In this document: positions 12,301 through 36,159 of the stretch, in pieces
Layout: the number at the start of each line of letters is the position of its first letter
Numbering within the stretch: the stretch's first letter is position 1
NCBI RefSeq assembly: GCF_053078305.1
Contig: NZ_CP166879.1
Length of the DNA: 64,000 nucleotides
Reading direction: 5' to 3' (one strand)
The notes under the pieces: generated by a model
Told to the model about the DNA's origin: nothing
Seen by the model: the letters and a program-made list of their open reading frames with translations, nothing else
Databases searched by the model: none
Translations under genes and position numbers: made by a program

Positions 12301-15300
12301 TAGTTGTTATCTCCAAGCAGACTTTGACCACACAGGATTTGGTAGTTGGGTTCATCTACTGCAACCTGTTTACTAATAAATTCATGAACGTTTCCAAGTG
12401 CTGAATCATTATTGGTCTTTGACCACATACGCCTTGCTCCCAGAATCAATAACCTTTCTTGAGCTCGCGAAATAGCAACGTTTATTCGCGGCGCGTCGCG
12501 CAGGAAACCTTGTAGTTTGTTGGGATTATCGCGAACCAGACTGAGGATAATTATCTTGTTTTCCTGGCCCTGATATGAATCAACGGTATCGATCTTGATC
12601 AAACCACGTAACGATGCAGCCCATTCAGCCCGACTGATAGCATTGTCAATTTCCTCTTTTTGCTGACGATACATTGTGATTATACCAATAGGATATGGCT
12701 GTTCTGTGGTAATAGTTTGCTCAAGCTGTGCAATGCAGCCATCACTCGACAATGACTGCAAAGCCTCTAGCAGTAGCCGGACTTCTCGTTGATTATAGTA
12801 ACGACCATTACCCTTATGTTCTTCTGCACCTGCTTCATTAGGGCTCGAACTATCGATCCAAGTAACAGTTTTGTTCCAAGGGATTGGTAACTTGGAATAC
12901 CAATCTGGCGAGACTTTCCTCGATGAATGCAGTTTACCGATATCTTGAGCGTAAAAGCACTCCGATACTAACTCGCCAATTGGTTCTACCATTCGATATT
13001 GAGTATCGAGTGTTACGCCGCCTGTTGCTTTAAAAGCACGTTCAAAATCAGACTCATAAAAGATCCCTTTCCCGAGTTCTAATTTCTTAGAGGCTAACTT
13101 AAGATGCTGTTGATGATAGAATGGTGGCAATTGTTTATGATCCCCTACCAACAGCACCCGCTTGCCTGATTGCAGCGCTACCATCAATTCAGCAGCTTGT
13201 GCTCGGCCAGCCTCATCAACTATTACCCAATCAAAGCTGGACTCAGCTAGTTCTAGTCGACGATTCCCAACACCAACAAGAGTTCCACAAACCAATCGCT
13301 TACTTTTGAACATAAATCGATCAAATCCAGCCTCGCCGCCGCGTAATACATCCATCCACTCTTGGCTCATTTCCAATAGCTGCATAAAACGTTCAAGGTT
13401 CTCTGGATTGTTATAATTGTATTGTATGGCAACTTGCTCAGCCAACTGTCTTATCAAGGTTTCATCATAGACAAGAGTTTTCAGCAAGCTGTCATCGAAT
13501 ATTGAGTTAATAATTTCTTGTGTTCGCAGTTTAAGCTGATTGCTTTGTTCTAATAATTCAGCCAGTCGCTCTTGATGACTAATACTACTACTCTTTATTT
13601 GTTCTACTTTATCCAGCTCACGGCTATATTGGCCATATGTCACCATCAAGGGATTCAGCGTACGATGTAACTGACATAACTGTTGGACTAATAATGGGGC
13701 CATCCCTAGGCGCTTTCCTAGGGAGCTAACTCGCAGATCATATTCACGGTGAAATTTATGCTGAATCTGTCGCTGAAGAGCTTTAGTTGCAACACTTAGC
13801 ATACCCTCATCAATCATAAGTTCATTACCAATACGTACTGTATCCAGTTCCATTCCTTTCGTATGGCAGAGCTCTCGAGCCTTGATGGCTACATTATCAA
13901 CAGAGGCATGGGATTGCCCGACCAAAAGAATGTTATTCACACCGCAATGTTGATACAGATAGTGAATAAATTTTGAAATAAATGTTGTTTTACCTGTTCC
14001 AGGTGGTCCCTGCAGAACTCCAACTGGTCCAAACTCGACCAACTGTTGAAATGCCATTAGCTGCTGTTCATTAAAACGTTGTCCAGGCTGATCATAAAGT
14101 GCGCGTAATGTCTCCGCGGATGGCCGCGGTTGCATTTGCTGCATGCAGGGTTTCTGGTGGTAATCAAAATACTGTGGCAGATGCTGGATCTCTGCTTTGT
14201 TTTCAATTACCCGTTGAAGGGCTCTTTGACGCAACTCTCTTGATGATTTGTCACGGATCGATTCCAATTGTAGCTGGCTGCCGCTACTAATTCGCTTACG
14301 AGCAGCATCAAAATCAAAGCGAATAGCCAATAGACTCGGCGTAGTCTCACTTAGCTGCAATTCCCCTAATTGCACTGATTCACGCTTATCTTTAATATAA
14401 ACAATGATCTTATCATCAAGTTCAAAGCTGAGGTCAGCACCGGATTCCGTAGTATATGGGTAGAGTAAGCAACCACTCGGTGATTCCTGAAAGTCAGTAG
14501 AGTCGATGTTGACTATATCTCGTAGGTCTACTTCTGTATCAGATAATGCCTGCCATAACTCAATTGGGCTTGACTCACTACTATCGAAGTCATCTTCATC
14601 CATCTCTTGATTAGGATTAGCTCGCTCAATGATGGCATCAATTACTGGCTCGAGGTTAAACAGTAGTTCAATAAAAGTATTACGCTGATTAAGTGAGCCA
14701 CGTTGTAATGAAAGTTGAGTATTAATTTTAGCCTGGGAATATTTACCAGCCTTTATACTTTCTTCGATCGATAATCCTTTTTCATACACTATTCTATTAA
14801 TAGTGCGATTATCAGGATCTAAGTCTATCAATAGCCGCTCTCCTAGGCCAGTGATGTAACAACGCAATTCATGCGCAAAGCGTGGGTTAGATGACCAGTT
14901 ACATTGAAAATAATAGATCCCATCATTTTGTTCTAGAAGCTTCACTTCTTGCGGCCAATCATCTGTGCCCCAGCAAACAGGAATTACCTTATCCTGTGAC
15001 TCAGACGCCACAACTTGATTAATCTCAGCTTGTTCCGGTGCTCGAATTGACTGCAGCAAAGGATCGAGCGCGATAGGTATACCGTCAACGGTTTGTTTTG
15101 CGCGTTCTAGCTCAGCCTGCACCAGTACTGGCATATCTTCACTAAATAGCTCCTCCACCATACGATATACTGCAAAGCAATCTCGCCCAAAAGCATCAGT
15201 ACTTTCGGGATTCTCTGGCTGGTAGCGATTATCTGCAGTTAATTCATCACTGAATTCAAGCAATCCAATCAGAGTAATTACTGTCTGCTCCCCGACTTGT

Positions 15301-17258
15301 ACCAGCAGTTTCTCTGGGCAAAGATCTCCATGAGGTAACTGCTTTTCATGAAAAGCATGAATGGTGTTGATCAACTTTTCCGCAATTGTAAAACGTTGGG
15401 ATTGTACTAACACGTTCTCAGCAATAAACTGTGACCACGGTAGGCCATCCACATACTCGCTCACTACATACAAGCCGCCTTGTCCTAATAGTCCATAGGA
15501 CTGCACCTTAGGAGTTGGCAGATTTATATGCGTAAGCTTATCGATCCGTTGCTTAAAAGCGTGGATACGGCGGTTAACACCAGGTTGTTGAGGGGTCAAA
15601 ATAACACCATCCCACAATTTTACCTGCAGAGCTTTCCCACCTTGTTCACAGTGATAACTGATGCTGCCAGTCGTAGCAATAGCAGCAAGAGCAGAGTAAA
15701 CCATAGACAACTGTTCAGGAAGTGGAGGAAACTCAATTAACACACCAACGCTGTTCATCCCTTCGCGAAAGAATTTGTTTTGCTTTAATTCTTGATAAAT
15801 CTGGTTAGCTTCATCAAATTCTTGGCTATGTTCCTTAGTAGCTGCATTAAACTCATTGAGCATTATGTCCGCACGTGGAAAGCGTTTACTTGGCTCAAGG
15901 TTAAGAGCTTGCTCAAACCAGCTATTTAGAATACCGCTAAAAGGATCAGTTAATGGAGCTCTCCATTCAGGCATCTGTCCAGGAGTCAGTAATGATTCAC
16001 CTGCAAAACAAATACGATAAGCAATTACAGCCAACATGAATACATCTAGGCGATAGGGCTCAACTGCTTCTTCAAAAGCATCTTCGGGCAAAATATATGG
16101 AGCACTTTGCAATGTCGGACGCAATGACTCTAGGCTATTATGTCCCTCCAGTGAGGCTGCGCCAAAGCCAGTAACGACAATGCTCTTCTGATCCCCTGCG
16201 TACCATAGATTGTGCGGGTCAATATCACAATGACTGATACCCAAGCTATGTAATTCCGAGAATGGAGCTAATAATGCACGAACGCGATCAATACGCTCAG
16301 ATTTACTCCATCCGTCAGCTTCGCTATCTAGAATCTCATCTAATCGGCTAAAACTACGGCGTAACTCATACAGCTCACGGGCATCATCAGTTATATCCTC
16401 CTCGGATAGTTCCCTTACAGCACGCAACATATAATCCTGCATAGTTGCGCTGCCATGACGAACTAGGCGACCGACTCGAGTCTCACGCAGAGCTATCTCA
16501 GCCCACAATGTTTGCATTGCGTTTGCTACACCCAAGGCATCAAAGTTCCACTGCCGTAGCAGACCTCTGTGTTGACTATTGTCTTTGTGGGTAGCCCTGA
16601 ATTCGTTGTAGACCATGTGAGGGTGACTAAAGAATGGCTTATCGTTCGCAAGATAACCGCTTTCTTTTAGTGGCAAAGGCCTGACTTTTGGTCCTTCAAA
16701 GAAGGACTTAATTATAGGTAATGCCTCATCAGAATTTGGTCGAGGCTTTCCCCCTTCAAAAAGATGAAAAAAGTTAGTGTGTTGCACCAGCTTTTCGTAA
16801 TTTTTTGGGTTACCTATAGTCAAGAATTCATCACGGGTATGAACATAGCGCCTCTCACTTAATGGCAAGTTTTCAGGACCAGCTGTGCCACACAGCACTA
16901 CATGAGCCTCAACATGCAAAAAGTAACCCAGCTTACGAGATAACTCTTCCTGCAACAAATCTTTTAGTCGCAGTGCATGCTCACGCTTGATCTGATAGGG
17001 ACTTTTGCCTCGTGACTTACCATTTTGCAGCCACTTCCCCCCTTCAAATGTGATGTTACCATTCCACTCTTTAAGCTCGACTAATAGCAGACGGTCAGCA
17101 GTAATAATTAGCATATCGATTTCCATCGACCCTTGGCTATCAGTAACAACTAAGCCAGCATAGCCAAACCAACTATCTGGTAACTGCTTAACCATCATAT
17201 CAACTGTTTTGGTTTCGCTGCGGTGCAGGCCAGCACCACCTACTATCTGATACTTCAC
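12300..17258 (-). CDS. 1652-aa multidomain protein: NERD (PD-(D/E)xK-like) domain, two protein-kinase-like domains, Upf1/DNA2-like SF1 helicase
   Basis: GTG start with GGAG about 9 nt upstream; NERD-like EIDMLIIT...LLVELKEW (aa 45-64); kinase-like catalytic loops HCDIDPHNLW (aa 343-352, then TGFGAA) and HGDLCPEKLLV (aa 643-653); helicase Walker A GPPGTGKTT (aa 1085-1093), Walker B VIVDEAGRA (aa 1345-1353), VGDHKQLPP, DSYQGQE, NVAISRAQERL. Confidence 0.75.
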   Translation of the reverse strand: MKYQIVGGAGLHRSETKTVDMMVKQLPDSWFGYAGLVVTDSQGSMEIDMLIITADRLLLVELKEWNGNITFEGGKWLQNGKSRGKSPYQIKREHALRLKDLLQEELSRKLGYFLHVEAHVVLCGTAGPENLPLSERRYVHTRDEFLTIGNPKNYEKLVQHTNFFHLFEGGKPRPNSDEALPIIKSFFEGPKVRPLPLKESGYLANDKPFFSHPHMVYNEFRATHKDNSQHRGLLRQWNFDALGVANAMQTLWAEIALRETRVGRLVRHGSATMQDYMLRAVRELSEEDITDDARELYELRRSFSRLDEILDSEADGWSKSERIDRVRALLAPFSELHSLGISHCDIDPHNLWYAGDQKSIVVTGFGAASLEGHNSLESLRPTLQSAPYILPEDAFEEAVEPYRLDVFMLAVIAYRICFAGESLLTPGQMPEWRAPLTDPFSGILNSWFEQALNLEPSKRFPRADIMLNEFNAATKEHSQEFDEANQIYQELKQNKFFREGMNSVGVLIEFPPLPEQLSMVYSALAAIATTGSISYHCEQGGKALQVKLWDGVILTPQQPGVNRRIHAFKQRIDKLTHINLPTPKVQSYGLLGQGGLYVVSEYVDGLPWSQFIAENVLVQSQRFTIAEKLINTIHAFHEKQLPHGDLCPEKLLVQVGEQTVITLIGLLEFSDELTADNRYQPENPESTDAFGRDCFAVYRMVEELFSEDMPVLVQAELERAKQTVDGIPIALDPLLQSIRAPEQAEINQVVASESQDKVIPVCWGTDDWPQEVKLLEQNDGIYYFQCNWSSNPRFAHELRCYITGLGERLLIDLDPDNRTINRIVYEKGLSIEESIKAGKYSQAKINTQLSLQRGSLNQRNTFIELLFNLEPVIDAIIERANPNQEMDEDDFDSSESSPIELWQALSDTEVDLRDIVNIDSTDFQESPSGCLLYPYTTESGADLSFELDDKIIVYIKDKRESVQLGELQLSETTPSLLAIRFDFDAARKRISSGSQLQLESIRDKSSRELRQRALQRVIENKAEIQHLPQYFDYHQKPCMQQMQPRPSAETLRALYDQPGQRFNEQQLMAFQQLVEFGPVGVLQGPPGTGKTTFISKFIHYLYQHCGVNNILLVGQSHASVDNVAIKARELCHTKGMELDTVRIGNELMIDEGMLSVATKALQRQIQHKFHREYDLRVSSLGKRLGMAPLLVQQLCQLHRTLNPLMVTYGQYSRELDKVEQIKSSSISHQERLAELLEQSNQLKLRTQEIINSIFDDSLLKTLVYDETLIRQLAEQVAIQYNYNNPENLERFMQLLEMSQEWMDVLRGGEAGFDRFMFKSKRLVCGTLVGVGNRRLELAESSFDWVIVDEAGRAQAAELMVALQSGKRVLLVGDHKQLPPFYHQQHLKLASKKLELGKGIFYESDFERAFKATGGVTLDTQYRMVEPIGELVSECFYAQDIGKLHSSRKVSPDWYSKLPIPWNKTVTWIDSSSPNEAGAEEHKGNGRYYNQREVRLLLEALQSLSSDGCIAQLEQTITTEQPYPIGIITMYRQQKEEIDNAISRAEWAASLRGLIKIDTVDSYQGQENKIIILSLVRDNPNKLQGFLRDAPRINVAISRAQERLLILGARRMWSKTNNDSALGNVHEFISKQVAVDEPNYQILCGQSLLGDNN

Positions 17259-17468
17259 GTTTTCTCCTGCACCACTAAATTTTTGTTGGTGGTAGTCCAG
17301 TAAAAATGGATGTAGTTATCTAAGACAGCGCATAGATTGTGCCTGCCTAACCCTAAAAAGTGTAATTATGAAAAGTAACGCTAGAAATTCTATACCGTTC
17401 GCAAAGAGAACACTTTTCAAAGATATATCATCATCTTGAACATGTCACTATAATGGTGAATCCATAAG

Positions 17469-21290: not shown

Positions 21291-21712
21291 CGTCCCCTCC
21301 CGGTCAGTTCACGGATCAACACCGTGAGCAGCTCTGGTGAAGGATTTTCCAGCGTCATGTTACCGTGGCGGAACTCAACTTTACAGGAACTGGCACTGAC
21401 TGTGCTTTGTGAAGGAGTGGATAAAAGCGGAGTAAGAGCCGCCACAGGCTCTTTCTGCTCATCAGGCGTTATCTCAACAGGTAATAATTCAACGCCAGCG
21501 CCAGAAGAGGTTGTTACCGGAAGACGCCGCGATATACGCCCTTCGTTCTGCCAGAGCCTGAGCCATTTGAACAGGAGGTTATCATTGATATCGTGTTCCC
21601 GGGCAATACGGGCAACAGAGGCTCCTGGTTGTGAAGCCAGTTTAACCATTTGAAGTTTAAACTCATTTGAAAATGATCTGCGGGGTTCTGAGGATAATAT
21701 TTTCTGTTCCAT
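21287..21712 (-). CDS. IS66 OrfA, 141 aa (element A)
   Basis: HTH-containing OrfA (NEFKLQMVKL...); overlaps orfB by 4 bp. Confidence 0.75.
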   Translation of the reverse strand: MEQKILSSEPRRSFSNEFKLQMVKLASQPGASVARIAREHDINDNLLFKWLRLWQNEGRISRRLPVTTSSGAGVELLPVEITPDEQKEPVAALTPLLSTPSQSTVSASSCKVEFRHGNMTLENPSPELLTVLIRELTGRGR

Positions 21713-21802
21713 AACAGGTGTCCACTAGTTGAAAAGGTGGGCACCTACGTTACCAATACTGGCTTAATGGCTACATACGGCGGTCAGTTTACGCTTACTG
21801 CT

Positions 21803-23320
21803 ATGGCACTTACCATGGTACAAAAAGTCATGTCGGAGAATGCCGAAAAAGAGCGGGAATTACTGGAGAAAAGCCGGCGCATCCAGCTTCTGGAAGAAAT
21901 GCTGAAACTGGTTCGTCAACAGCGCTTCGGTAAAAAATGTGAAACGCTGGCTGGTATGCAACGCTCCCTGTTCGAAGAGGATGTTGATGTCGATATCGCC
22001 GCGCTTACCGCACATCTGGATAAACTGCTCCCGCAATCCCCTGAAGAAGACGAAAAAGCGTCCCGTTCACGCCCGATACGCAAACCCTTACCGGCTCATC
22101 TTCCACGGGTGGAAAAAATTATCCAGCCGGACACTGACCATTGCCCTGAATGTGACGAGCCGCTGCACTATATCCGTGATGCGGTGAGTGAAAAGCTGGA
22201 GTATATTCCCGTTCACTTCGTGGTGAACCGTTATGTCCGTCCGCAATACAGTTGTCCCTGTTGCCAGAAGGTGTTCAGCGGTGAAATGCCGGCACATATC
22301 CTCCCGAAAAGTGCCGTTGAGCCATCAGTCATCGCACAGGTGATCATCAATAAATACGGTGACCACCTGCCTCTGTATCGCCAGCAGCACATTTTCTCCC
22401 GAATGGGGGTGGAGCTCCCCGTCAGTACAATGGCGGATAGGGTCGGTGTTGCTGGCGCTGCACTGGCCCCGCTGGCAAAATTGTTACGCCACGAGCTTCT
22501 GACACGGGATGTTATTCATGCCGATGAAACGTCCCTGAGGCTCCCTGATACCCGGAAAGGCGGTAAATCCTGCTCCGGCTGGCTGTGGGCTTACGTCAGC
22601 GGAGAAAGAAGCAGTCCGCCGGTCGTCTGTTTTGACTCGCAGACCGGACGGGCCCTCAGATATCCTGAGGCCTGGCTGCAGGGCTGGTGTGGCGGTACGC
22701 TGGTGAGTGACGGATACAGCGTGTACAAATCTCTGGCGGATAATGACCCCGGTATTACATCTGCCTGTTGCTGGAGCCACGCAAGGCGCGGTTTCGCAAA
22801 TCTGTATAAGGCCAGCAGGGAGCCCCGTGCAGCCATGGCGCTGAGAAAAATCGCGGGTCTTTATCGCATTGAGAAGTTCATCCGTGAACGTCCTGTGGAA
22901 AAAATACGGCAATGGCGACAACGGTATTCCCGGCCGATAGTGAATGACCTGTTTGCCTGGCCTGAAGAGCAGGAGCCGTGCTGTCCGCCCGACGGACCAC
23001 TAAACAAAGCGATTAATTATATCCTGAACCGGCGCGATGAACTGAGCTGCTTCCTGAGTGACGGAGCCGTGCCCCTGGACAACAATATCTGCGAGCGTGC
23101 TATCCGCCCGGTCGTTATGGGACGAAAGGCCTGGTTGTTCGCCGGTTCACTGATGGCCGGAAACCGCGCGGCACAGATAATGAGCCTTCTGGAAACGGCA
23201 AAACGTAATGGTCTGGAGCCACATGCCTGGCTGACAGACGTCCTGGCGCGTCTGCCGGAATGGCCAGAGGAGCGACTGGCAGAGTTGCTGCCTCTTGAGG
23301 GATTTACCTTCTCCGGGTGA
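21803..23320 (+). CDS. IS66-family transposase OrfC (element B), about 505 aa; start codon lies inside the duplicated target of element A
   Basis: IS66 TnpC-like sequence; the track's longer ORF (from 21737) reads through the element A inverted repeat, so the first ATG after the repeat (21803) is preferred. Confidence 0.65.
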   Translation: MALTMVQKVMSENAEKERELLEKSRRIQLLEEMLKLVRQQRFGKKCETLAGMQRSLFEEDVDVDIAALTAHLDKLLPQSPEEDEKASRSRPIRKPLPAHLPRVEKIIQPDTDHCPECDEPLHYIRDAVSEKLEYIPVHFVVNRYVRPQYSCPCCQKVFSGEMPAHILPKSAVEPSVIAQVIINKYGDHLPLYRQQHIFSRMGVELPVSTMADRVGVAGAALAPLAKLLRHELLTRDVIHADETSLRLPDTRKGGKSCSGWLWAYVSGERSSPPVVCFDSQTGRALRYPEAWLQGWCGGTLVSDGYSVYKSLADNDPGITSACCWSHARRGFANLYKASREPRAAMALRKIAGLYRIEKFIRERPVEKIRQWRQRYSRPIVNDLFAWPEEQEPCCPPDGPLNKAINYILNRRDELSCFLSDGAVPLDNNICERAIRPVVMGRKAWLFAGSLMAGNRAAQIMSLLETAKRNGLEPHAWLTDVLARLPEWPEERLAELLPLEGFTFSG

Positions 23321-23921
23321 GTGATACCTGCCGTCAGGTGTTCGTGCACCGGGCCATAACCTGCAGTCGGGAGTTGAACTCCTGACGACAGGAAATGAGC
23401 CAGACCAGCAACCACACGGGCTGACAGCGAATAAGAACCTGAATCAGCCCGGAGTCATTCCCGGGTCAGTACATCATCACCTGCCATTAATCCCCGAGTC
23501 AGTACTTCGCGGCCTGACGCGATCACCCTACTCAGTACTTCAGAGCCCGCCTCCGGTACCTGCCTGGCGATCGCCCCTGTGCAACAAAATAAATCAACCG
23601 TTATCAGACCACGATCGTTCGTATGCGCCGCCGATGACGCGCGCCTGAAAAACGCGTCAATATGAGTTCCCCGGAAGCTTACGGAAAAGTTGAAGATCAT
23701 GCTGTTTATTTTCATCTGTATTGTCACCAGTCAGCATATGCCCCGGTCCCCGATTAGGTTGCGTGTTTTCATGGAAGGAGAGCGCCCAATAACCTCTATT
23801 GAGATTGGAGTTACTCACCGATCACTTCCACAGTAATACGCACATTACCATCATTCCTGATGGCATTGACCAGGAACATAACTACCAATAAAAATTCCCC
23901 AAAGTTGAAGTTACCGTAAGC

Positions 23922-24197
23922 CTATTTTTTATCTTCTTTTCTTTCTTGTAACTTTGCTTTTATCCAAATACCAATCCCTGCTAACATACCAGCCCCTCCC
24001 CCCACCTTTAAAGAATAAATAATATCTGCCCTCCAATCAAAAAATAAAACTTGAGTTTTAGAAAAAACTATCAGTCTACCAAGAATAGTACCTAACATTG
24101 CCATAAAAAAGATGCAAGCTATGCAGCGCATTATTAGTATGATAAGAATGTAAAAGTTGACACTCTTATTTATTTTTAATGGATTTATCAGCTTCAT
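23922..24197 (-). CDS. cdiI: CdiI-like immunity protein (small membrane protein), 91 aa
   Basis: Overlaps the cdiA 3' end by 32 bp; hydrophobic helices; position typical of CDI immunity genes. Function inferred from context. Confidence 0.55.
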   Translation of the reverse strand: MKLINPLKINKSVNFYILIILIMRCIACIFFMAMLGTILGRLIVFSKTQVLFFDWRADIIYSLKVGGGAGMLAGIGIWIKAKLQERKEDKK

Positions 24198-27100
24198 CTA
24201 GTGTTCCTTTTGTTACATTCCCGATAGCTTCACCAGTAATTGTTCCCCCAATATTACCAATAATATCAGATGTTCCCTCTTTGACAGTAGAGCCCATTGA
24301 CCCCGAGATGACTTTCCCTATACCGCCACCAAATACTGAACCTAATCCTGTCCCAATAACTGAATTTGTCGGATCCTCGCCTTTAATACTACTACCAATT
24401 GCCGCGCCGCTCATGTTGATAGGAGTTGAGACGATGATGCCTTTACCGGTTGTAGCTGCAGCTGTCACCCCAGCCATTATCGCATCCACATAACTGAAAG
24501 GACCTTTTCCAGCAAGCTGAGCAGCTGAGTTTACGCTGATACCAATTGCTGCATTAGTCGCCATACCTTTCACTGTTAACCCCAGTACGCTTCCTCCAAA
24601 CAACAAAGGAGCATCACCAATACTTGCATTAGATTTATGATACCCCCAGGTATTCATAATGCTTTGAGCCTTTGCCATTGCTTCAGTATCAGGGTTACGT
24701 TTTATATAGTCCTGTCCTGACAGTAACCCGGTAACAAGCTCCTGTGCCACCGCTGTACCGTACTCCTTTTCCATTTCTGAAGCATATACACGCAAGTAAG
24801 CTGCCAGTTCAGCACGTTCTGCGCTGTTTAATTGTGAAGGATCTTTATTAAATTTGGATACCAGAGCATCACTACGTTTATCTGCATTTTCCAGCTTAAT
24901 CAGCTCATTAGCAGTGGCTAATGTCTTATCGCCGTTCCTGATTTTCTCAATGGCTTTATCCAGTTTGTCAGAAGATGTCGCTCCCAGAAAGTTATTCTCA
25001 ACAGTCGTCTTACCTGACTGTGCGCCGGCTACCGCTGAAGCCCCCGAGTTGCCCACCAGACCACCGGCCAGGCCGGCAGCAACCGTTGCCAGTGTCGAGA
25101 CCGTCTGCTTCTCTGTCTCGCTCAGTTCACTCACCGGCTTACCGTACATCTGTGTGGCTATCATTCCCACCACCTCGCCGGTGGCAGCCCCTGCGGCACC
25201 GGCAAGGGCATTATTTCCCTGTGCCACCGCCAGCGCGGCATTCACAACCGCATGGGCGGCCACACGCCCCGCACCGTCCGGGGTGTTATTTTTGATTATT
25301 TCTGCAATGTACGGCGCAGCACCACCTGCCAGGGCTGCACTCAGATTACCACCGGCCAGTCCCTGTACCGCTGCCGTTGCAGCCTGTATCGCCTGCTGGT
25401 ATTTGCCTCCCGTTCCAAAACCGGAGGCTGCCATACCGTTATTGTAGGCCCGCTGTGCCACATCCTGTTCCGTGAACGGTTTTCCTGCTGCCTCAAGCTC
25501 CGCACGGGCCTGATTCAGTGCTGCCGGGTCCCGCTTCGCTTTCTCACCGGCTATCTGTCCTTCCGTTCTGGCAATATCTGCCACCTGGTTACCAATCTCA
25601 CCAATGAGTTGCGCCTGCTGCAGTCGCTGCTGCTCTTTTTCCCTGTCAAAGATGGGGGACAGCGTCTGATTTGCATGTGCTGCGTCACGGTTCAGGTCTG
25701 CCACATCCTGTTTCTGGCTCTGCGTATCCCGGATGGTGATATTCCCGGCAGACACTGCCGACTGCGTGGTACTGTCCGCATGGCCTTCATGATTTGCACC
25801 GACCAGCAGATTGTTTGCCATGTTCCCCAGGAAATTTCCAGCAACACTGCCACCGGTACTGAGCCCTGTACTCTGATGTTCCGTTTTAAAGTCGGCCCGG
25901 TTTTCAATGTCACTGAAGCCCAGTGTGCCGGTATCCAGCCTGTTTTTATCTGCCGTTGCCGTGGACGCAATCACCGCACCGTTCAGTTGCGTATGCTGTC
26001 CGGTGGTGACATCAAACCCGCCCCTGCCGGCAAAAATCCCCGTCTGCTCCTGTACACTGTCGTAGTTACTGTGCATTTTATCCCGGCTGAGGTTCACACT
26101 CGCCGAACCGCTCATGGACCCGAAAATGAAGCTGCCTCCGGCGCTGGCATTCTGCTGCTTACTGTCATAACGGTCACTGTCCTGCTCACTGGTCAGTGTC
26201 AGATGACGACCGGCATCCACTTTCACCGTTTCACCGCCAGCCTGCGCGCCGGTAAGCGTGGTGTCCCGCCCGCTGATAATGGTCAGCCGGTTTCCCGCAT
26301 CCACCGTGGTTTCTGTATGGGTGGTACCGTTGCCTTTTTCACTGCCCTTACCCTGGTTTGCGCTGGCTGAAACACTGATACCCCAGCCTCCGGAGCCCAC
26401 ACCAACACCGACACCCACGCTGCCACCACTGGATGTGTTCTTTCCTTCCAGCTTTGACGTGTTTTCTGCTGATACCAGATTCACGTCACGGTTTGCCTGC
26501 AGCAGAACGTTGTTCCCGGCCTTTATCTGACTGCCCTGTATCGTCAGGTCACCATCCACGCCCTTCACGCCGGAGCCGGTGGCCTGAATACTGAGGTTAT
26601 TACCTGCGGTCAGTGTACTGCCCTTCGCCACCGTCTGCTCTGACTGCTGTTCTGATTTCGAAGACTGGCTGCCGTAAGAGAGGCTGATGCCCACCGTGTT
26701 ATTATTTCCGGCATCGGCTCCCTGCGCGTCTGCCAGTCGTCCGGCCTGCACGGCCTGAGCCCCCGAGAGCGCGGCCTTCACCCCCTGCAGGGCTTCAAGC
26801 CGGCTGTTTCCGGCAGATTTCGCCGCCTGTACGGTCTCCACCGTCGTATTCAGGGCGCTGCCCGCTGTGCCGGACAGGGCAAGCGTCAGACCGGAGGTTT
26901 TCTGCTCCACCGTATGTGTCTGTACATGCTGGTCTGTGGCGGCGGTAATGCTGACCTCCTTACCGCTGAGTGCCATGTCCCTGCCGGCAATCAGGTCAGA
27001 GCCGTTGACGGTCAACCGGTTACCTGCCTGAAGGGAAACATCACCGTGAACACTCCCCACCGTGCTGCCTTTCTGTGTGGTGTCTGTTGCGGTGTCCGTG

Positions 27101-30100
27101 ACTTTCAGACTCTGGCTGCCCATGCTGAATCCCACACCTCCGGAGCTCATCAGCCCAGATTTTTTCTCCTGTTTCAGGTGTGTTTCACGGTTGCTTTCTG
27201 TCAGCGTGCCGATACTCAGGTCATTTCCGGCAGCCAGGGAGACACGGTTATCCCCGGCCACACTGCTGCCCGTGACGTTCAGATTATGTCCGGCACTGAT
27301 ACTGACCGTATCCCCGTTCAGTTCACTGCCCGTCATGGTCCGGCGGTCAGTGACATCATGCGTGGTTGTGGTGGTTTTCGATAACATCCCGCTGCTGCCG
27401 GTCACTTTATGGTATTCATCCAGCGAGCGGGTATTCTGTGCACCGGTCAGCGTCACGTCATGACCTGCCATCAGGGCCAGGCCTTTCTGAGCTGACAGCG
27501 ATGCCGCCTGTGACGTCATATCCCGTCCGGCGGTCAGCGTGACATCACCGTTACCGGCAAGCGTGCTGCCCGTACTCTGTGTGACGCCCTGCGACAGACG
27601 ATTATTTTTATCCCAGATAATATTGTCCTGCGCGGAAGTGGTCACAGTGGAAAGCGTCATATCCCTGCCCGCACTGAGTTGCGTCAGGCTGTCCTTACCC
27701 TGATTCACCACCGTTGCAGCCGTCAGATTCATATCCCGTCCGGCCTGCAGCACCAGTCTTCCCTGGTCGTTCTGCACATACACGCCGGCCACACTGTCGA
27801 TACTGGTACGTTCAAAATGGTTCTGTCCGGCGTCGCGCTGTGCCGTACGGGTGGTGGTGGTCAGACTGATATCCCGTCCGGCCATCGCCAGCAGGCTGTC
27901 CGTGGCCTGCAGCAGCCCGCCGGTACTGTTAATATCCGTCCGGGCCGTCAGGCTGACATTTGCTCCCTGAATGGAGCCGGCCTGGTTGTGAATGTTTTCT
28001 GCACTGAGCTGCACGGTCTGCTTCCCGGCCAGTTTACCGCTGTTAAACAGGTCACCATCCAGCTTCATCACCATGTCCCTGCCGGCAATCAGCGCACCGG
28101 CGCTGTTCACATCACCGGGTTTTACACGGGCATACACCTGAGGTACCTGAACCGTCTGCGTGCTGCCGTCCGGCAGTGTCACCGTGGTGTTAACCAGCCA
28201 GACAATATCACCGGTCAGTAACGCCATCTGCTCAGCAGTCAGCGCCACACCTGGTGTCAGGTTGTATTGCTTACCAAATGCAATACCCGCATCCATTAAC
28301 GCCTTAAACTGCTCTTCATCATTACTGTATCCGTCCAGGTACCGTTGCCCGGTCAGAGCGACAACCTGCTCACGAATCAGACGCTGTTCGTAAAAACCAT
28401 CCCCCAGGCGTTTGAGCATGTTATCCCCGTTCTGAGAAAACGCCTTCTGCATGTAATCACTGCCCAGCCACGTCTTCTGGTTCGTAAAACGCGGGTCCGT
28501 TTCAACCAGATATGGCACATTCACTGCCGGGTTTGTTTTAAACAGGCTGCTGTCCGGCAGACGGGTATCCGGCCCGGCAACATGGATACTGCCCTGAGGT
28601 GCGCTGACTTCAAACTGCTGCCCCGGCAACAGAATGACCGGTTCACCGGCAGACACCACCGGGCGAAGCGGTATCCGGTCAGTAGCGGCTACTGCCGCAT
28701 CCACATTTCCGGCCTGTCCTGTCTGTACATCCGTTCCCTGTGGCTTCAGAGGAGAAAGCGTGACCTGGCTGCCCTGAATCTGTCCGTGGCTGGTGAGCTC
28801 TCCCGGCTTCAGCGTAATGCTCTGAATTACAGTGGGCGGAGTGTACTGAGAGGTTTTCTCCCCCTGCTTATCCTTTCCTTTTTTCCTGATACGGTAATAA
28901 TACGTGGATGTTCCTGAGTCCGTAACATGCCGCTCGCCACTGACACTGACATTTTCCACGCTTCCTGACGGAATGGTCAGCAGGCCGCCTGCAACAACCT
29001 GACTCTTATCATTAAGCAGTTTGTCTGCCACAATCGTCATGCCGGCACCGGACAGAATTTTTCCCGGGTCGGAGTCTTTTACCCGGGTTTCTTCCACGGT
29101 ACGGGTGTAATCATACTGCGTGAATTTATCTCTGGCGCCTTCCGGTGTATGCAGTTTTTTCAGTGAGTTACTGGAATCGTTATCCACATAAACGCCCGGT
29201 TCACCGGCGCTCCAGCGTTTATCTGAGCCGCTGAGCTGATACTCAGTCACCTTTTCCGTGGAAACCACCACGCGCTCCGTGGTGAAATGGTCATTGACGT
29301 TATTGATTTGTCCGGCACTCAGTACCAGATATCCGGCGGCTTCAATAGTGGCACTGTGATTATTCAGTACACCGGCTTTCCCCGTGGCGGCACCATTCGC
29401 ATCCAGCATGCCACCAGTATGCATATCACCTGCACTGTAAATCAGGCTGTGCGTCCGGTTATTCAGGGTCTGTACCCCTAAGTCCACACGCTCACGCCCG
29501 GCCAGCGTCGCCGCCACGCCATTTTCTTCCAGATTATTAAATGTGGCAGCGCTGACACCAACAGCATCGCCGTAGATTCGCCCGGTACCGGAATTCGTCA
29601 GGGTGTTCGCCTGAAGATGCGTATATTTCCCGTCAATCAGCCCACGGTTCAGCAGTGTGTCCGTCACGTTAAGCCAGGTCTGCCCGGCACTGATTTCACC
29701 TTTCTCTGTGTTTTCAAGGCGGATGCTGTTCAGGTCAAGCCGGCTGCCTGCCAGCAGGCTGCCGGTATTAGAGACATCGCCATTAACGGAAAGCGTAAGG
29801 TTTCCGTTCGCAATAGTCTGACCACTGTTGCTGAACGTTGTGTTACTTTTCAGCGTCATATCGCCCAGCGAAAGCAGTTTCCCGTCACCACCGAGCTGAC
29901 CGGCATCCACAGATACTGACTGCCCGGCCTTAACCACGCCGTCACGGTTCGAAAACGCCAGCTGACGGCCACTGACAGACAATGTCGCGCCGGAAGAGAG
30001 GACGCCGTCATTATTACTGAGCGTCCTGTCTGCCATAACCGTAAGCGCCCTGTCTGCCAGAATACTGCCCTCCTGGTTATCAAGGTCCTGCGTCGTGATG

Positions 30101-33100
30101 TGTATTGTCTGCGCTTCCAGCCCCTGACCGGTATTCTGCGTGTGGCGATTGATAAACTGCAGGGCGTTCAGCGTAATGGCGGAACCACTGCGAATCAGAC
30201 CAGAGACGTTGTCCACAACGCCCCGTACACTGTTGAGCAACATGTCGCCCACAGACTGTATTTGTCCGTGGCTGTTCTGCAGACCTCCCGTATGCAGACG
30301 GAGTTCACCTTCACTGACCAGCCGGCCCCCCTCACGGTTATCCAGCGAGGTGGTGCTCAGGTCAGCTGTCGTTTTCGCCCCCACGGTCCCGCCCCGGTTA
30401 TCCATTGCTCCGGTACTGACAGTCAGTTCCTGCAGGCTGTTCAGCGTACCGCGTCTGTTATCCAGCGTCTGGCCTGCGGTATTAATGCTGATACCCCTCC
30501 CCTGAATAAGACCGGACTGATTGTTCAGCGCCTGGCTGTTCCAGCCGAGCAGACCGTTTGCCACCATCTGACCGGATGTATTGTTAACCACGCCTGCAGT
30601 CAGGGACAGAGCATCTCCCGACAAAAGCACACCGGCAGTGCTGTCCAGTGTGCCGGCATTCAGCGTCATCGGACCCTGACTGATAACCCCGCCCCGGTCA
30701 CCACTATTACGGTTACTCAGTGTGTCAGCACGGAGATTCAGCGATGCACCGCTCTGTATCAGGCCGCCGGCATCGTTGATGATATCCGTCGAGGAAAGTG
30801 TCAGTGACTGCTGTGCCACCAGTCTGCCGCCCTGATTATCAAACCGTGTGACATCCAGCCTGCTGTTACCGTTGCTGACCACCGTCCCCTGCTGATTTTC
30901 CAGCACACTCAGGTGCGTATTCAGGTCCCCGCCGGCGGCAAGCGCCCCTTCCTGATTACTGACATCACCACCACTCAGCAACATATCCGTCCCGGCCTTC
31001 AGTGCGCCTTTCTGGTTCATCAGCGTACCTGACGATATCTGTAATGACGTCTGACTCCCCAGCACGCCCTGACGGTTATCGAGCGTTCCGGCGTTCAGGG
31101 TCATATCCTTCTGACCCGCCATAAATCCCTGCTGGTTATTCAGCATACCGGCCCGCACTGTCAGGGTACCGGCGCTGCTGATACCACCCCGTGTTTTCGT
31201 GTTCCGGTTACTGAGTACCCCGTCCTGTACATCCAGCGTCATGTCACTGCCGGACTGAATCAGACCATCATCAGAGACCAGTTCGCTGCCTGACACAGAC
31301 AGCGTTTTCTGTGAAAGCAGTCTGCCGGACGTATTATCCAGCGCACCATCCAGCGTCACAGACAGCCCGTCAGCCACCACCGTACCCTGGTGGTTATTCA
31401 GATTCCCTGCCGAAATATCCAGCCTGCCGGCGGACTCCATTCGTCCCTCAGTATTGCTGACAGCCTGCTGTGTTTTTATCCTGCCCGTTCCGGCAGCAGC
31501 TGAAATCAGTCCGTTGTCGTTATTCAGCGCCTGTGTATTAATCAGGATGTCACGGCTGGCAAGCAGACGTCCCTGCTGGTTATCCACGGCGCCGGTTGTC
31601 CTCACCTGCAGACTGCCTGACTGCGCCGCCTGCACTTTCCCCCTGCGATTATCAAGGCTCAGTGCATCCAGACGCACCGCGCCATTTGCCGCAAACAGCC
31701 CTTCCCGGTTATCCACGCTTCCCGGCAGACTCAGCGAAAAATCCCCTGTTCCCGTCTGAGTCAGACTGCCTTTACGATTTGACAGGCTTTGTGCCGATAT
31801 CTGCAGTGTGTCGGCATTTATCGTGCCACCATTATTGCTGAAGTGCCCGACAGTCCGGGCGGAAAGCGTACCGGCACTCAGTTGCGCATTCTGTGTGGAC
31901 AGATTTCCACTGGTTGCATCCAGCTCAGTATGTTGTCCCTGTATCCGGCTGTTGCTTAAATCCAGCCCCTGCCCCTTCAGTTGCATGTCCCCACCGGACA
32001 GAACCTGTCCGTGTGCCGCCAGTTCGCCGGTGGTACTGACAGTCAGGTTGCCCGCTGCCGCCAGACGTCCGTCATCTTTCACCCCGGCGGCCAGCAGACT
32101 CCGCTCACCGCCGGTCAGACGCGCTGTCTGAATCCGGGTGTTGCGACGTGATGCCACAGAGCCTGTATGGGTGAAGACACCATCACTCTGTATCTGCGTA
32201 TCCTGCCCCGCATAAACAGAACCACTGTTATGCAGCTCCCGGGTTGTCGCCAGATGCACATCCGTTTTCGCACTGATACTGCCACTGTTTTCAATACGTC
32301 CGTCAGCCGTCAGGGTAACCGCCCCTGCCTGTGCACCAATATGACCGGCGTTACGAACACCCACCCCCGTTTCCGTACCGACAAGGCGAATTTTTCCGGC
32401 ATACATTCCGCCAAGACTGGCCACATCCAGTGCCATCTGAGGCTGTGAAGAGACATCACCGGTCTTTTTCTCAATCTGCCCGTGCGCGATATCCACATTG
32501 TTACGTCCTGTGGTCACTTTCAGATCCTGCGCCCAGATACCCGCATTAATCTTCACAGACCGGGCAATGATATCGGTATAATCCGTGCGCGAGGCATCCA
32601 TCCCTTTGCCCGTAACCTGAATCTCACCACGTTCAACACTGAATCCGGTCAGACTGCCGTTTTTCATCTGCGGCTGCCCCGTGGTCAGCGTGGCCCGGTT
32701 CGCATTAATAAAACCGCACCCGTCGCAACTGATGCCGGCCGGGTTCGCAATCACCACCTGCGCCTTTTTACCGGCAACCTCAACAAAACCGTTCAACTGG
32801 CTGGGATTGCGACTGTTCACTTCATTAAGAATGATTCTGGCCTCTCCCTTAGCCAGCCACGGGTTCCCGGCCACCATGCCACCCAGTTGAGTCTGCACAT
32901 TGTTATGGGCATTATTCAGAATGACGCCCTGGTTACCGACGTCGAACTGGCTGTATGCGTTATGTGAAACCCCGCCGGCAGAAGGCGTCTGAATATTCAC
33001 CTGCGGAATGCCGCTGGCCGTCTGCGTAATCGTGGGCTGCTGATACCCTGGTGCGCCATGGTCTGCGACAATGCCTGCAGCACTGACAGAATGCACCATC

Positions 33101-33279
33101 CCCGAAGCCAGCCACAAAGAGAATGCAAGCGGCGTGACACGGCAGATACGTTGCCTGTGTGGATATCCTGTGCGGGAGGACAGTGATGTACCGGCGCGAC
33201 CGGAACGGGCAATATCTGCCACCACCATCAGCATTCCCCGGGCTTTGTTAAAAATAATGCGGTAACAATTTCTGTTCAT
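24166..33279 (-). CDS. cdiA: CdiA contact-dependent inhibition exoprotein (TpsA/filamentous haemagglutinin family), 3037 aa, with VENN-delimited C-terminal toxin
   Basis: Extended signal peptide (YRIIFNKARG...VVADIARSG), TPS secretion domain (NPAGISCDGCGFINANRATLTTG), long haemagglutinin-type repeats, VENN motif 274 aa before the C-terminus. Confidence 0.85.
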   Translation of the reverse strand: MNRNCYRIIFNKARGMLMVVADIARSGRAGTSLSSRTGYPHRQRICRVTPLAFSLWLASGMVHSVSAAGIVADHGAPGYQQPTITQTASGIPQVNIQTPSAGGVSHNAYSQFDVGNQGVILNNAHNNVQTQLGGMVAGNPWLAKGEARIILNEVNSRNPSQLNGFVEVAGKKAQVVIANPAGISCDGCGFINANRATLTTGQPQMKNGSLTGFSVERGEIQVTGKGMDASRTDYTDIIARSVKINAGIWAQDLKVTTGRNNVDIAHGQIEKKTGDVSSQPQMALDVASLGGMYAGKIRLVGTETGVGVRNAGHIGAQAGAVTLTADGRIENSGSISAKTDVHLATTRELHNSGSVYAGQDTQIQSDGVFTHTGSVASRRNTRIQTARLTGGERSLLAAGVKDDGRLAAAGNLTVSTTGELAAHGQVLSGGDMQLKGQGLDLSNSRIQGQHTELDATSGNLSTQNAQLSAGTLSARTVGHFSNNGGTINADTLQISAQSLSNRKGSLTQTGTGDFSLSLPGSVDNREGLFAANGAVRLDALSLDNRRGKVQAAQSGSLQVRTTGAVDNQQGRLLASRDILINTQALNNDNGLISAAAGTGRIKTQQAVSNTEGRMESAGRLDISAGNLNNHQGTVVADGLSVTLDGALDNTSGRLLSQKTLSVSGSELVSDDGLIQSGSDMTLDVQDGVLSNRNTKTRGGISSAGTLTVRAGMLNNQQGFMAGQKDMTLNAGTLDNRQGVLGSQTSLQISSGTLMNQKGALKAGTDMLLSGGDVSNQEGALAAGGDLNTHLSVLENQQGTVVSNGNSRLDVTRFDNQGGRLVAQQSLTLSSTDIINDAGGLIQSGASLNLRADTLSNRNSGDRGGVISQGPMTLNAGTLDSTAGVLLSGDALSLTAGVVNNTSGQMVANGLLGWNSQALNNQSGLIQGRGISINTAGQTLDNRRGTLNSLQELTVSTGAMDNRGGTVGAKTTADLSTTSLDNREGGRLVSEGELRLHTGGLQNSHGQIQSVGDMLLNSVRGVVDNVSGLIRSGSAITLNALQFINRHTQNTGQGLEAQTIHITTQDLDNQEGSILADRALTVMADRTLSNNDGVLSSGATLSVSGRQLAFSNRDGVVKAGQSVSVDAGQLGGDGKLLSLGDMTLKSNTTFSNSGQTIANGNLTLSVNGDVSNTGSLLAGSRLDLNSIRLENTEKGEISAGQTWLNVTDTLLNRGLIDGKYTHLQANTLTNSGTGRIYGDAVGVSAATFNNLEENGVAATLAGRERVDLGVQTLNNRTHSLIYSAGDMHTGGMLDANGAATGKAGVLNNHSATIEAAGYLVLSAGQINNVNDHFTTERVVVSTEKVTEYQLSGSDKRWSAGEPGVYVDNDSSNSLKKLHTPEGARDKFTQYDYTRTVEETRVKDSDPGKILSGAGMTIVADKLLNDKSQVVAGGLLTIPSGSVENVSVSGERHVTDSGTSTYYYRIRKKGKDKQGEKTSQYTPPTVIQSITLKPGELTSHGQIQGSQVTLSPLKPQGTDVQTGQAGNVDAAVAATDRIPLRPVVSAGEPVILLPGQQFEVSAPQGSIHVAGPDTRLPDSSLFKTNPAVNVPYLVETDPRFTNQKTWLGSDYMQKAFSQNGDNMLKRLGDGFYEQRLIREQVVALTGQRYLDGYSNDEEQFKALMDAGIAFGKQYNLTPGVALTAEQMALLTGDIVWLVNTTVTLPDGSTQTVQVPQVYARVKPGDVNSAGALIAGRDMVMKLDGDLFNSGKLAGKQTVQLSAENIHNQAGSIQGANVSLTARTDINSTGGLLQATDSLLAMAGRDISLTTTTRTAQRDAGQNHFERTSIDSVAGVYVQNDQGRLVLQAGRDMNLTAATVVNQGKDSLTQLSAGRDMTLSTVTTSAQDNIIWDKNNRLSQGVTQSTGSTLAGNGDVTLTAGRDMTSQAASLSAQKGLALMAGHDVTLTGAQNTRSLDEYHKVTGSSGMLSKTTTTTHDVTDRRTMTGSELNGDTVSISAGHNLNVTGSSVAGDNRVSLAAGNDLSIGTLTESNRETHLKQEKKSGLMSSGGVGFSMGSQSLKVTDTATDTTQKGSTVGSVHGDVSLQAGNRLTVNGSDLIAGRDMALSGKEVSITAATDQHVQTHTVEQKTSGLTLALSGTAGSALNTTVETVQAAKSAGNSRLEALQGVKAALSGAQAVQAGRLADAQGADAGNNNTVGISLSYGSQSSKSEQQSEQTVAKGSTLTAGNNLSIQATGSGVKGVDGDLTIQGSQIKAGNNVLLQANRDVNLVSAENTSKLEGKNTSSGGSVGVGVGVGSGGWGISVSASANQGKGSEKGNGTTHTETTVDAGNRLTIISGRDTTLTGAQAGGETVKVDAGRHLTLTSEQDSDRYDSKQQNASAGGSFIFGSMSGSASVNLSRDKMHSNYDSVQEQTGIFAGRGGFDVTTGQHTQLNGAVIASTATADKNRLDTGTLGFSDIENRADFKTEHQSTGLSTGGSVAGNFLGNMANNLLVGANHEGHADSTTQSAVSAGNITIRDTQSQKQDVADLNRDAAHANQTLSPIFDREKEQQRLQQAQLIGEIGNQVADIARTEGQIAGEKAKRDPAALNQARAELEAAGKPFTEQDVAQRAYNNGMAASGFGTGGKYQQAIQAATAAVQGLAGGNLSAALAGGAAPYIAEIIKNNTPDGAGRVAAHAVVNAALAVAQGNNALAGAAGAATGEVVGMIATQMYGKPVSELSETEKQTVSTLATVAAGLAGGLVGNSGASAVAGAQSGKTTVENNFLGATSSDKLDKAIEKIRNGDKTLATANELIKLENADKRSDALVSKFNKDPSQLNSAERAELAAYLRVYASEMEKEYGTAVAQELVTGLLSGQDYIKRNPDTEAMAKAQSIMNTWGYHKSNASIGDAPLLFGGSVLGLTVKGMATNAAIGISVNSAAQLAGKGPFSYVDAIMAGVTAAATTGKGIIVSTPINMSGAAIGSSIKGEDPTNSVIGTGLGSVFGGGIGKVISGSMGSTVKEGTSDIIGNIGGTITGEAIGNVTKGTLDEADKSIKNK

Positions 33280-33294
33280 TCTGATAAACCTGAC

Positions 33295-33822
33295 TTATCT
33301 CTCCGGCACATCCACAGCAAGCGGGTGCTGCACACGCCACTGGCGCGCCTCTTCACGACTGACCTGTGCACCCCGGAAATTCATCACCCGTAACCCGGTC
33401 TGCTGCCCACGGTGGTACAGCGAACGCCAGCACAGACGGGGAAAAATATCCTGCCGGACAAGACGACTCATATCCGGAGTGTGTCCAAAAGGGGCAACCC
33501 AGTCACAGACCCACATCCGGTCGCCGCTGTTCCAGTCCGACTGAGGCATGAGAATTGCCGGCTGCGTAAGATAACGCGCCTCTGCCTCCGGGCTGAGCCA
33601 GGCCTGGCTCATGAAGAAAACCGGTCGCCCCTGCTCTGTTGCCACCACATACTGTCGGTGCTTAATCACCGGCAGCAGCAGGTCCGGCAGGGTATGCAGT
33701 GGCGCATCACGATGCAGGGGGGAGTGCATCCACAACCAGACGGCCGCCCCCAGGACTTCCGCCTCATTGACCGGCTCACCGGAATACAGGGGACTCAGAA
33801 CGTCATATTTCCCGTTACGCAT
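33295..33822 (-). CDS. cdiC: HlyC-family toxin-activating lysine acyltransferase (CdiC-like), 175 aa
   Basis: HlyC-like blocks WLWMHSPLHRDAP and SGDRMWVCDWVAPFG; sits between cdiB and cdiA. Confidence 0.7.
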   Translation of the reverse strand: MRNGKYDVLSPLYSGEPVNEAEVLGAAVWLWMHSPLHRDAPLHTLPDLLLPVIKHRQYVVATEQGRPVFFMSQAWLSPEAEARYLTQPAILMPQSDWNSGDRMWVCDWVAPFGHTPDMSRLVRQDIFPRLCWRSLYHRGQQTGLRVMNFRGAQVSREEARQWRVQHPLAVDVPER

Positions 33823-33831
33823 GAAACTTTC

Positions 33832-35571
33832 TCAGAAATCCCGGAACAGATTAAAACCGGCTGTCACATCACTCGTCATAAAACCCGCCGGCTTTGAAAA
33901 CGGACGACCGATGAAAACGTCATAATCCGTACTGAACAGTTGCCCCCTCAGCCCCACAACACCACCGGCCAGATGACGTCCCACCAGATATTCACTGCCG
34001 GCTCCCCCCACCTCGCCGTAATCCATTCCCAGATATAACGCCTGCTCCGGCAGTGGCGTACGCCAGGCCAGGTCGTTGCGGATATACCAGCCGTTACTGG
34101 CATTCAGCGTTCGCTCCCCGTCAAAACCACGAACCGTCCAGCGGTTACCGATGGCAAACTGTTCCTGTGGGGTCAGCGGGGTATTGCTCAGCTGGCGCTG
34201 ATACCGGAAGGAATAACTGAAGGGCTGCTCTGCCAGTGTAAAGGGCAGATTAAAGGATGCATTCATCTGCAGGATCTTACTGAGCGCCGTTGCCTCACCG
34301 AAGATTTCCTCCGGTGCCGGCTGTGCACCAAACCAGCGGGTTCCCCGTTGCCAGCTGACACCAGCATCCAGTGTGGCCTGAGAAATATAATGACGGTGCT
34401 GCAGCCCAAGTCGCCAGGCCGCTGTCTGCCGGCGCTGCACCTGGATTTCCGTATCATTAATGTAGTTACGCGACCTGCGGGCCTGAACATCGTAAGTCAG
34501 CACCGTTTTCTGCGTCCCGTTACGATGCAGTACCCGGCTCAGCTGCATGCCCAGATTCTGACTCTCGCCACTGTACTGGTAATCCTCAACCGCACCAGCT
34601 ACCGTCTGATGGTAATCGTAATCACTGGCGGTGACGGAAAACTGCCAGTAACCGAAAGGCACAGAGTAATGGGCCGTGTAGTTTTTACTGCCCTTACCCC
34701 CGTAATGTGGAAAATTATGGGTGGCAGAAACATACAGCAGGTCACTCAGGGAAAAAGGATTATCCAGAGAAAATGTTATACCACCGAGATAACGCCCTGT
34801 GCTGCGGGTACCTGAATCATCAAGCGAAAACCCCAGTCGCCAGTATTTATCCTGTTTACGGGTAATAAGAATATCACTTTCCCCTGGCTGCTCACCGGGC
34901 ACAATTTCCATATCAGCCTGCACACCCGGCAGTCGTTGCATATTCTCCAGCCCCTGCTCAATGTCCCGTAAATCCAGCAGAGAACCTTCGTGTGCCGGGA
35001 ATGAGGAATACAACTGAATATAGTCATCACTGTCCGGTGTCAGACGCACATGTCGCACAACACCGGGAATAATAACCAGCCGGAGGATACCGCTTTTTAA
35101 ATCCTGCGAAGGTGCCAGAACACGGGTGGTGACATAACCATGATCGACCAGACGGTTCTGCAATGTACTCATCAGCAGATTAATTCCTTTCGCCCCCAGG
35201 CAATGCCCGACCGCCCCGTTGGCGATTTTTTGTAAAGGCAGCCAGTGTGGTAACGCATCAGCCCCCTTCAGTTCCGTCTGTTTAATCTGAAAACAGGGCG
35301 TTTCAACAGGAAAATTAATCTTATGGGCAAAAGAGCCAGGTGCAGAAAGGCGAACATCAGGGGCTGAAGGCGTCAGTTGTTGCTCAAGGGCTTCCTGACG
35401 CTGCTGCTGAATGATAAATGTATCCTCTCCACTACGCCGGATATCCGCTGCCTGAAGAGATAAAGGCGATAGTAAAACAGACATCAGTGTCAGTGACAGC
35501 AAGGACGGACAGCGCCGGAATACGCTTTGTTCCTCAGCCCTCTCGTTCCTGCAACATAATTTTCCAGTCAA
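33832..35571 (-). CDS. cdiB: CdiB two-partner-secretion outer-membrane transporter (TpsB/ShlB/FhaC family), 579 aa
   Basis: Signal peptide, POTRA-like region, beta-barrel with C-terminal aromatic residue; immediately upstream of cdiC-cdiA. Confidence 0.8.
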
Positions 35572-36159
35572 ACGAAAAACCTTTTATTCATGCCATACCA
35601 ACAATCACCAGCCTCCTGACGATACCTCCCACCATGTTTTGCAGTGGTACGCTACCGCCCTTCCGGTATTTACCCACACCAACCGGTACCAGAATGCTGA
35701 GTAACAAATCCGTTCAGAATTGACTTAATTTTGATCATTATAGAATAATGATCTGAGCGACAGCAATATGACAGATTTATCGATCGATATAACACAAATG
35801 AACAGATCTTTATTCTGCCGAATATCGCAAAAACAGCATATCGCAAAACTTATAACCATAATTAATGGAAAAGTGCAGAAAATTATTCCACTGAATGCTT
35901 TTAATACAGTTGGTTAGCTAAAAAAATATCATTTTTTGATTTCAGTCATTGAAAATTGCAATGCGTGACGATTCAACAGCATTTAAGTGAGTTTCAGGAT
36001 ATGGGAAGGACATGAAAGGAGGAGCGTAATAAAACACACAGGAAGAAGGGGAAAATGTTTCGTAAAAACAGAAAATTAACAGCGCACATCAGGAAACTCA
36101 GTCTCCTGATTCAGTGCTACCACATGAAAATTTAGTTAACTGTTACCGTACTAAAATTT

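Follow-up and report, generated by a model that had tools for sequence, protein, structure and literature searches.

The window analysed here is a stretch of 64,000 nucleotides from contig NZ_CP166879.1 (RefSeq assembly GCF_053078305.1), and lies within an E. coli genomic island that is rich in IS elements. It carries four genes in the order cdiB-cdiC-cdiA-cdiI, all on the minus strand, which is also the order of the E. coli STEC_O31 locus whose product, CdiA(STEC4), was characterised as class IV by Halvorsen et al. (mBio 2021; PMC8510554). These genes and the relevant parts of CdiA are as follows.

33832..35571, minus strand: cdiB, an Omp85/TpsB outer-membrane transporter (Pfam ShlB at E 2e-109, POTRA_2 and POTRA_3).
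33295..33822, minus strand: cdiC, a 175-residue toxin-activating lysine acyltransferase (TAAT/HlyC family).
24166..33279, minus strand: cdiA, an intact class IV CdiA of 3037 residues with ESPR, TPS, FHA repeats, receptor-binding domain (RBD), PT-VENN and toxin tip.
28513..29298, minus strand: the RBD of CdiA, Val1328-Pro1589, with boundaries that match the construct of PMC8510554 and with similarity to a Ralstonia CdiA.
28879..28881, minus strand: codon of CdiA Lys1467, the predicted acylation site, in the context R-K1466-K1467-G-K1469 and with the number of the site in PMC8510554.
24169..25002, minus strand: CdiA-CT, the polymorphic toxin tip, which runs from VENN to the C-terminus and is not of the Ntox25 type.
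23922..24197, minus strand: putative cdiI, a hydrophobic protein of 91 residues, assigned an immunity role from its position alone.

The gap between cdiB and cdiC is 9 nt and that between cdiC and cdiA is 15 nt, while the cdiA and cdiI ORFs overlap by 32 nt. In a consensus scan, no promoter-like or terminator-like site was found at the cdiB-cdiC or the cdiC-cdiA junction. Because the minus strand upstream of cdiB also had no sigma-70-like consensus site and the total was below that of shuffled sequence, the scan is uninformative on expression. The four genes together appear to form a cdiBCAI operon. The longest ORF of cdiB has 579 codons and starts with TTG at 35571; a second TTG at 35502 fits the start proposed for cdiB in the literature and would provide a signal peptide. 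According to PMC8510554, translation of cdiB begins at a UUG that precedes the annotated start by 18 nt. The Pfam matches of CdiA were ESPR, TPS (E 1e-56), Fil_haemagg and PT-VENN (E 3e-20), with the VENN motif at residue 2760.

An earlier sequence-only reading of this DNA had placed an HlyC-like acyltransferase gene between cdiB and cdiA, and our searches agree with that assignment. The interval 33295..33822 is filled exactly by an ORF of 175 codons from ATG to stop. In a profile search, its product matched Pfam HlyC (PF02794, the RTX toxin acyltransferase family) at E 7.7e-32 with full coverage of the model (positions 1-127 of 127), a PDB sequence search aligned residues 14-160 with ApxC (PDB 4WHN) at E 5e-27, and tblastn related it to HlyC and EhxC at E about 1e-19. 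The match is far beyond chance, and cdiC is confirmed as a real gene. To our knowledge, ApxC is the sole TAAT with a solved structure. The AlphaFold2 model of CdiC had a pLDDT of 86 and a pTM of 0.84, and its top Foldseek matches were the chains of 4WHN (E 8e-15, TM 0.76-0.79, rmsd 1.9-2.4 Å), with GNAT acetyltransferases ranking behind them at a distance. The fold of CdiC is thus predicted to be of the ApxC type and related to GNAT. CdiC has no signal peptide and no hydrophobic segment, the highest hydropathy over 19 residues being 0.68, which fits a cytoplasmic enzyme that would use acyl-ACP.

RefSeq names the product of cdiC in the window a toxin-activating lysine-acyltransferase, and the identical protein is found under this name on at least 1000 public contigs. 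NCBIfam (release 20) gave no model for CdiC at E 0.001 or better, and the RefSeq name presumably derives from a Pfam or BLAST rule. NCBIfam likewise gave no match for CdiB, and PADLOC gave none for CdiC. Because the Pfam and PDB matches are strong, these blanks do not weaken the assignment of CdiC.

To compare catalytic residues, CdiC was aligned with HlyC (plasmid pRM13752), EhxC (pO157 Sakai), Vibrio RtxC, an ApxC fragment and the CdiC of Ralstonia. The following two codons stand out.

33712..33714, minus strand: codon CAT of catalytic His37, invariant in the TAAT alignment and with the number of the H37A mutant of PMC8510554.
33502..33504, minus strand: codon GAC of catalytic Asp107, Asp in five of the six aligned TAATs and with the number of the D107A mutant of PMC8510554.

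The A-P-F-G motif was as invariant as His37, and the column of Asp107 holds Asp throughout except for a Glu in Vibrio RtxC, so that the alignment leaves the His/Asp dyad of the HlyC family intact in CdiC. The counterpart of the dyad Asp in ApxC and HlyC is presumably Asp93. The catalytic His of ApxC is His24 (PMC8510554). As a separate observation, the CdiC of strain Z1323CEC0009 (L008; NZ_CP148453.1, 11001..11528) has F112S in its APFG motif, which is invariant in the other sequences, and an IS66 element occupies the place of the remaining cdiA in that genome. This single case may reflect a relaxation of selection once the substrate had been lost.

We compared the window with the STEC_O31 locus through the residues and sites named in PMC8510554 rather than through a full alignment, and by this measure 11 of the 12 markers sit at the same positions. 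In CdiC, Ser10, His37, Asp107, Glu158 and the AscI site are all at their published positions, and in CdiA the same is true of Val1269, Val1328, Lys1466, Lys1467, Lys1469, Arg1535, Pro1589 and Ser2159. The Arg-C peptide Lys1466-Arg1535 also contains exactly seven Lys and is preceded by Arg1465, as in STEC4. In contrast, residue 1243 of CdiA (29551..29553) is Ser in the window and Cys in STEC4. Considering that C1243S of STEC4 CdiA served as the control in the maleimide surface-labelling assay (PMC8510554), this assay would probably fail on the window allele without engineering. The toxin tip of the window is not Ntox25 either, and its cdiI differs from that of STEC_O31. The possibility that the window is the STEC_O31 locus itself was ruled out by Ser1243 and by the non-Ntox25 tip. 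The locus therein appears to be a close allele of the characterised class IV system with a swapped toxin/immunity module. In other class IV genomes, the body of CdiA was only about 97% identical to that of the window.

The experiments on STEC_O31 indicate what CdiC would do here. Killing fell about 100-fold when cdiC was deleted in frame, and the H37A and D107A variants of CdiC behaved like the deletion (PMC8510554). Active CdiC was required for a gain of about 171 Da on the RBD peptide Lys1466-Arg1535, which is best explained as 3-hydroxydecanoate, deduced from the mass shift under over-expression (PMC8510554). K1467A, K1467R and K1467Q each abolished the modification of CdiA, K1467R had the phenotype of the cdiC deletion, the lipidated RBD bound cells about 6-fold better, and the receptor of CdiA(STEC4) is the LPS inner core (PMC8510554). 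A 2022 review gives the same account of CdiC. The proposal of the sequence-only reading that this CdiA is lipidated is supported, by analogy, through these experiments on a locus in which the named residues carry the same numbers. Its further proposal, that the toxin or its delivery depends on acylation, holds for delivery but not for activation of the toxin: since the acylated Lys1467 lies in the RBD, which recognises the LPS core, acylation would serve target recognition.

We therefore regard it as very probable that the ORF is the cdiC of an E. coli class IV cdiBCAI operon and acylates the RBD of CdiA for target recognition. Acylation of Lys1467 with 3-hydroxydecanoate, recognition of the LPS core and an effect on killing of about 100-fold are transferred from STEC_O31 and would apply to the window by analogy. 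In the mechanism that we propose, cdiB, cdiC, cdiA and cdiI would be co-transcribed, and CdiC would act in the cytoplasm as a TAAT with a GNAT-like fold: with an acyl-ACP as donor and the His37/Asp107 dyad for catalysis, it would N-acylate Lys1467 of the CdiA RBD at the epsilon-amine. The acyl group would most likely be 3-hydroxydecanoate, with the chemistry taken over from STEC4, and it would be attached in the cytoplasm ahead of Sec-dependent export. After export by CdiB, CdiA would present the lipidated RBD at the tip of a surface filament. There the RBD would bind the inner core of the target-cell LPS, with its phosphorylated heptose, while the acyl chain probably inserts among the lipid A chains. 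As in STEC4, lipidation would raise affinity and improve the efficiency of toxin delivery about 100-fold. CdiC would neither activate the toxin nor serve the biogenesis of CdiA.

The toxin end of the locus bears on the latter point. For the tip, Pfam gave PT-VENN only, and PDB, NCBIfam and PADLOC gave no match; the 91-residue cdiI ORF likewise had no family match in NCBIfam or PADLOC. The last 140 residues of the tip are rich in Gly, Ala, Ser and Ile (19% Gly) and hold many small-xxx-small motifs. Together with the strongly hydrophobic 91-residue ORF, this Gly-rich tip points to a toxin that acts on membranes and is paired with an immunity protein of the membrane. The toxin/immunity DNA module was found in 93 E. 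coli genomes; the 15 matches listed are annotated merely as two hypothetical proteins, and several of these 15 records are O157:H7. RM10042 has a cdiC identical to that of the window, and the alignment of its locus with the window breaks off at about 24985, among the first codons past VENN; NC101 combines a cdiC that is 98.5% identical with its own VENN module and toxin tip. Because the tips differ between the window and STEC4, and between RM10042 and the window despite an identical cdiC, cdiC appears to move together with the RBD rather than with the toxin. The differing tip is thus an independent line of support, from sequence only, that CdiC serves the RBD and not the toxin.

These observations weigh against the alternative that CdiC activates the toxin, or acylates other sites in CdiA or CdiB, in the way that HlyC acts on pro-HlyA, with the C-terminal toxin needing a lipid for the target membrane. 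The alternative has a precedent in the RTX systems, where hlyC and ehxC lie directly upstream of their toxin genes, and the tip of the window does look membrane-active; furthermore, acylation in the STEC4 study was examined in the RBD only, according to its authors (PMC8510554). However, the STEC4 K1467R mutant reproduces the cdiC deletion fully (PMC8510554), cdiC is kept with interchangeable tips in the window, RM10042 and NC101, and Lys1467 co-occurs with cdiC across taxa. Taken together, activation of the toxin by CdiC seems very unlikely. Less likely still is a role of CdiC as a biogenesis factor that aids export or stability of CdiA or CdiB, which had been conjectured before, as cited in Ogier et al. 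2016 (PMC5131962), and would suit the position of cdiC between the transporter and cargo genes, but surface labelling revealed unaltered levels and processing of CdiA when cdiC was deleted or carried H37A or D107A, and the better cell binding of the lipidated RBD points to recognition instead (PMC8510554).

Among 5426 complete E. coli genomes, 197 carry cdiC, always on the chromosome and at 90-100% identity, with 193 of these at 95% or more, and this low frequency agrees with the earlier description of cdiBCAI as a minority arrangement. All cdiC records among the matches listed are annotated as 'toxin-activating lysine-acyltransferase'. Pairwise dN/dS of cdiC, calculated by the Nei-Gojobori method for the window and three diverged E. 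coli alleles, ranged from 0.10 to 0.33, and the gene is under purifying selection. A full cdiB together with cdiC occurs in about 190 of the 5426 genomes, and about 1090 genomes, including O157:H7, hold only a 5' cdiB (POTRA) fragment that matches 34946..35571 at 95-99% identity. In a large share of E. coli, the locus thus seems to have been lost with a scar left behind, and the intact locus of the window contrasts with these genomes.

By homology to GPEC1176, the part of the island in the window also includes iha, a lactate-utilisation operon, a large AAA-domain gene, agn43 and a CP4-type toxin-antitoxin end; there is no tRNA gene in the window. GPEC1176 has the same flanking island at 99.5-100% identity and lacks the segment of about 21584..35599, which consists of one IS66-family copy and the whole cdiBCAI locus. 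The breakpoint in GPEC1176 falls inside an IS66 tnpA-like ORF, which suggests that the CDI locus was lost or gained via the IS. Elsewhere in the island, at about 10750..17260 (homologous to L006, 11234..17739), a gene for a 1652-residue AAA-domain protein and one for a 515-residue hypothetical protein lie beside IS elements, and this pair could be a defence-type module.

In related genomes, the annotation of the locus is broken up. For RM10042, A31, Z1323CEC0009 and NC101, RefSeq lists cdiB and cdiA as separate fragments flagged 'incomplete'. In the loci L001 (NZ_CP028122.1, 10386..14285), L007, L008 and L009, the PGAP annotation shows cdiB as two overlapping features in the same frame, an intact 'ShlB family' CDS and a 'POTRA domain' pseudogene, and divides cdiA into three pieces. 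Relative to the window, neither cdiB of RM10042 nor the roughly 2460 N-terminal codons of its cdiA contain a stop or frameshift, so the RefSeq split in RM10042 is probably an annotation artefact. We rejected the view of the locus as a pseudogene cluster, considering that the ORFs of the window are uninterrupted and that RM10042 is free of stops and frameshifts in the part compared. That cdiC is an inactive relic in a decaying locus is a notion to which the IS-rich island, the scars in about 1090 genomes, the empty island of GPEC1176 and the pseudogene flags in relatives would all lend themselves, but it is scarcely credible in view of the uninterrupted cdiB, cdiC and cdiA of the window with catalytic dyad and Lys1467 intact, the dN/dS of cdiC below 0.35 and a RefSeq split in RM10042 that no stop or frameshift supports. 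Because the copy is intact, the locus of the window is probably active.

The RBD of the window also coincides with a marker used in the typing of STEC. The PCR primers for 'tpsA', in module III of the LAA pathogenicity island, match the window exactly and bracket an amplicon of 174 bp (28934..29107), the published size, inside the CdiA RBD. By this exact match and the location of the amplicon, the tpsA marker of LAA module III is the class IV CdiA of the window. The LAA papers considered here that cover tpsA and tpsB take both as adhesion or virulence genes, and another LAA paper places CDI loci only in other islands; cdiC is mentioned neither in the LAA papers on tpsA and tpsB nor in that on CDI loci. 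Papers that read tpsA as a host adhesin should therefore weigh an antibacterial, LPS-binding role. As a speculation to which we give little credence, the acyl chain added by CdiC might also let the filament tip enter eukaryotic membranes or promote autoaggregation and so aid LAA virulence, and, separately, the Gly-rich tip and the 91-residue cdiI could represent a new membrane-acting toxin/immunity family. If true, lipidation would contribute to the link between LAA and virulence in addition to its part in bacterial competition.

As for cdiC itself, the window adds little new biology. The gene, its family, catalytic residues, substrate lysine, lipid and deletion phenotype have all been published for the locus with matching numbering (mBio 2021), and the copy in the window is an intact but ordinary one of a characterised E. 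coli gene. The relation to more distant systems is as follows. The cdiBCAI-type locus was named by Ogier et al. 2016 (PMC5131962), who showed co-transcription in Xenorhabdus and found that cdiB, cdiC and cdiA co-evolve there. Like the window, the CdiC(FRM16) locus of Xenorhabdus doucetiae has an HlyC-like gene between cdiB and cdiA in a single operon (PMC5131962), whereas it belongs to another genus and has a larger CdiA and a DNase toxin tip.

A locus on the Ralstonia solanacearum megaplasmid (CP022793.1) shares the order cdiB-cdiC-cdiA-cdiI, and its CdiC is 58% identical to that of the window. Its CdiA RBD is 35% identical to the RBD of the window (E 3e-44) and keeps the KK pair, the context of which is YWRHQKKGRD in Ralstonia and YYRIRKKGKD in the window, although the host is a betaproteobacterium and the CdiA has 3327 residues. 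The RTX acyltransferases HlyC, EhxC, ApxC, CyaC and RtxC resemble CdiC in fold and His/Asp dyad at 29-37% identity, and their genes, like cdiC, are encoded beside the gene of the substrate. In contrast, the substrate of CdiC is a CdiA secreted by the type Vb (two-partner) route and that of the RTX enzymes a type I secreted RTX pore-former, and the acylation site lies in a basic, Tyr-rich loop of the RBD in CdiA but in a Gly-Lys motif in RTX protoxins. The lipid differs as well, with 3-hydroxydecanoate reported for CdiC and C14-C16 chains for the RTX enzymes, as does its role, which is receptor binding for CdiA and pore formation for RTX toxins.
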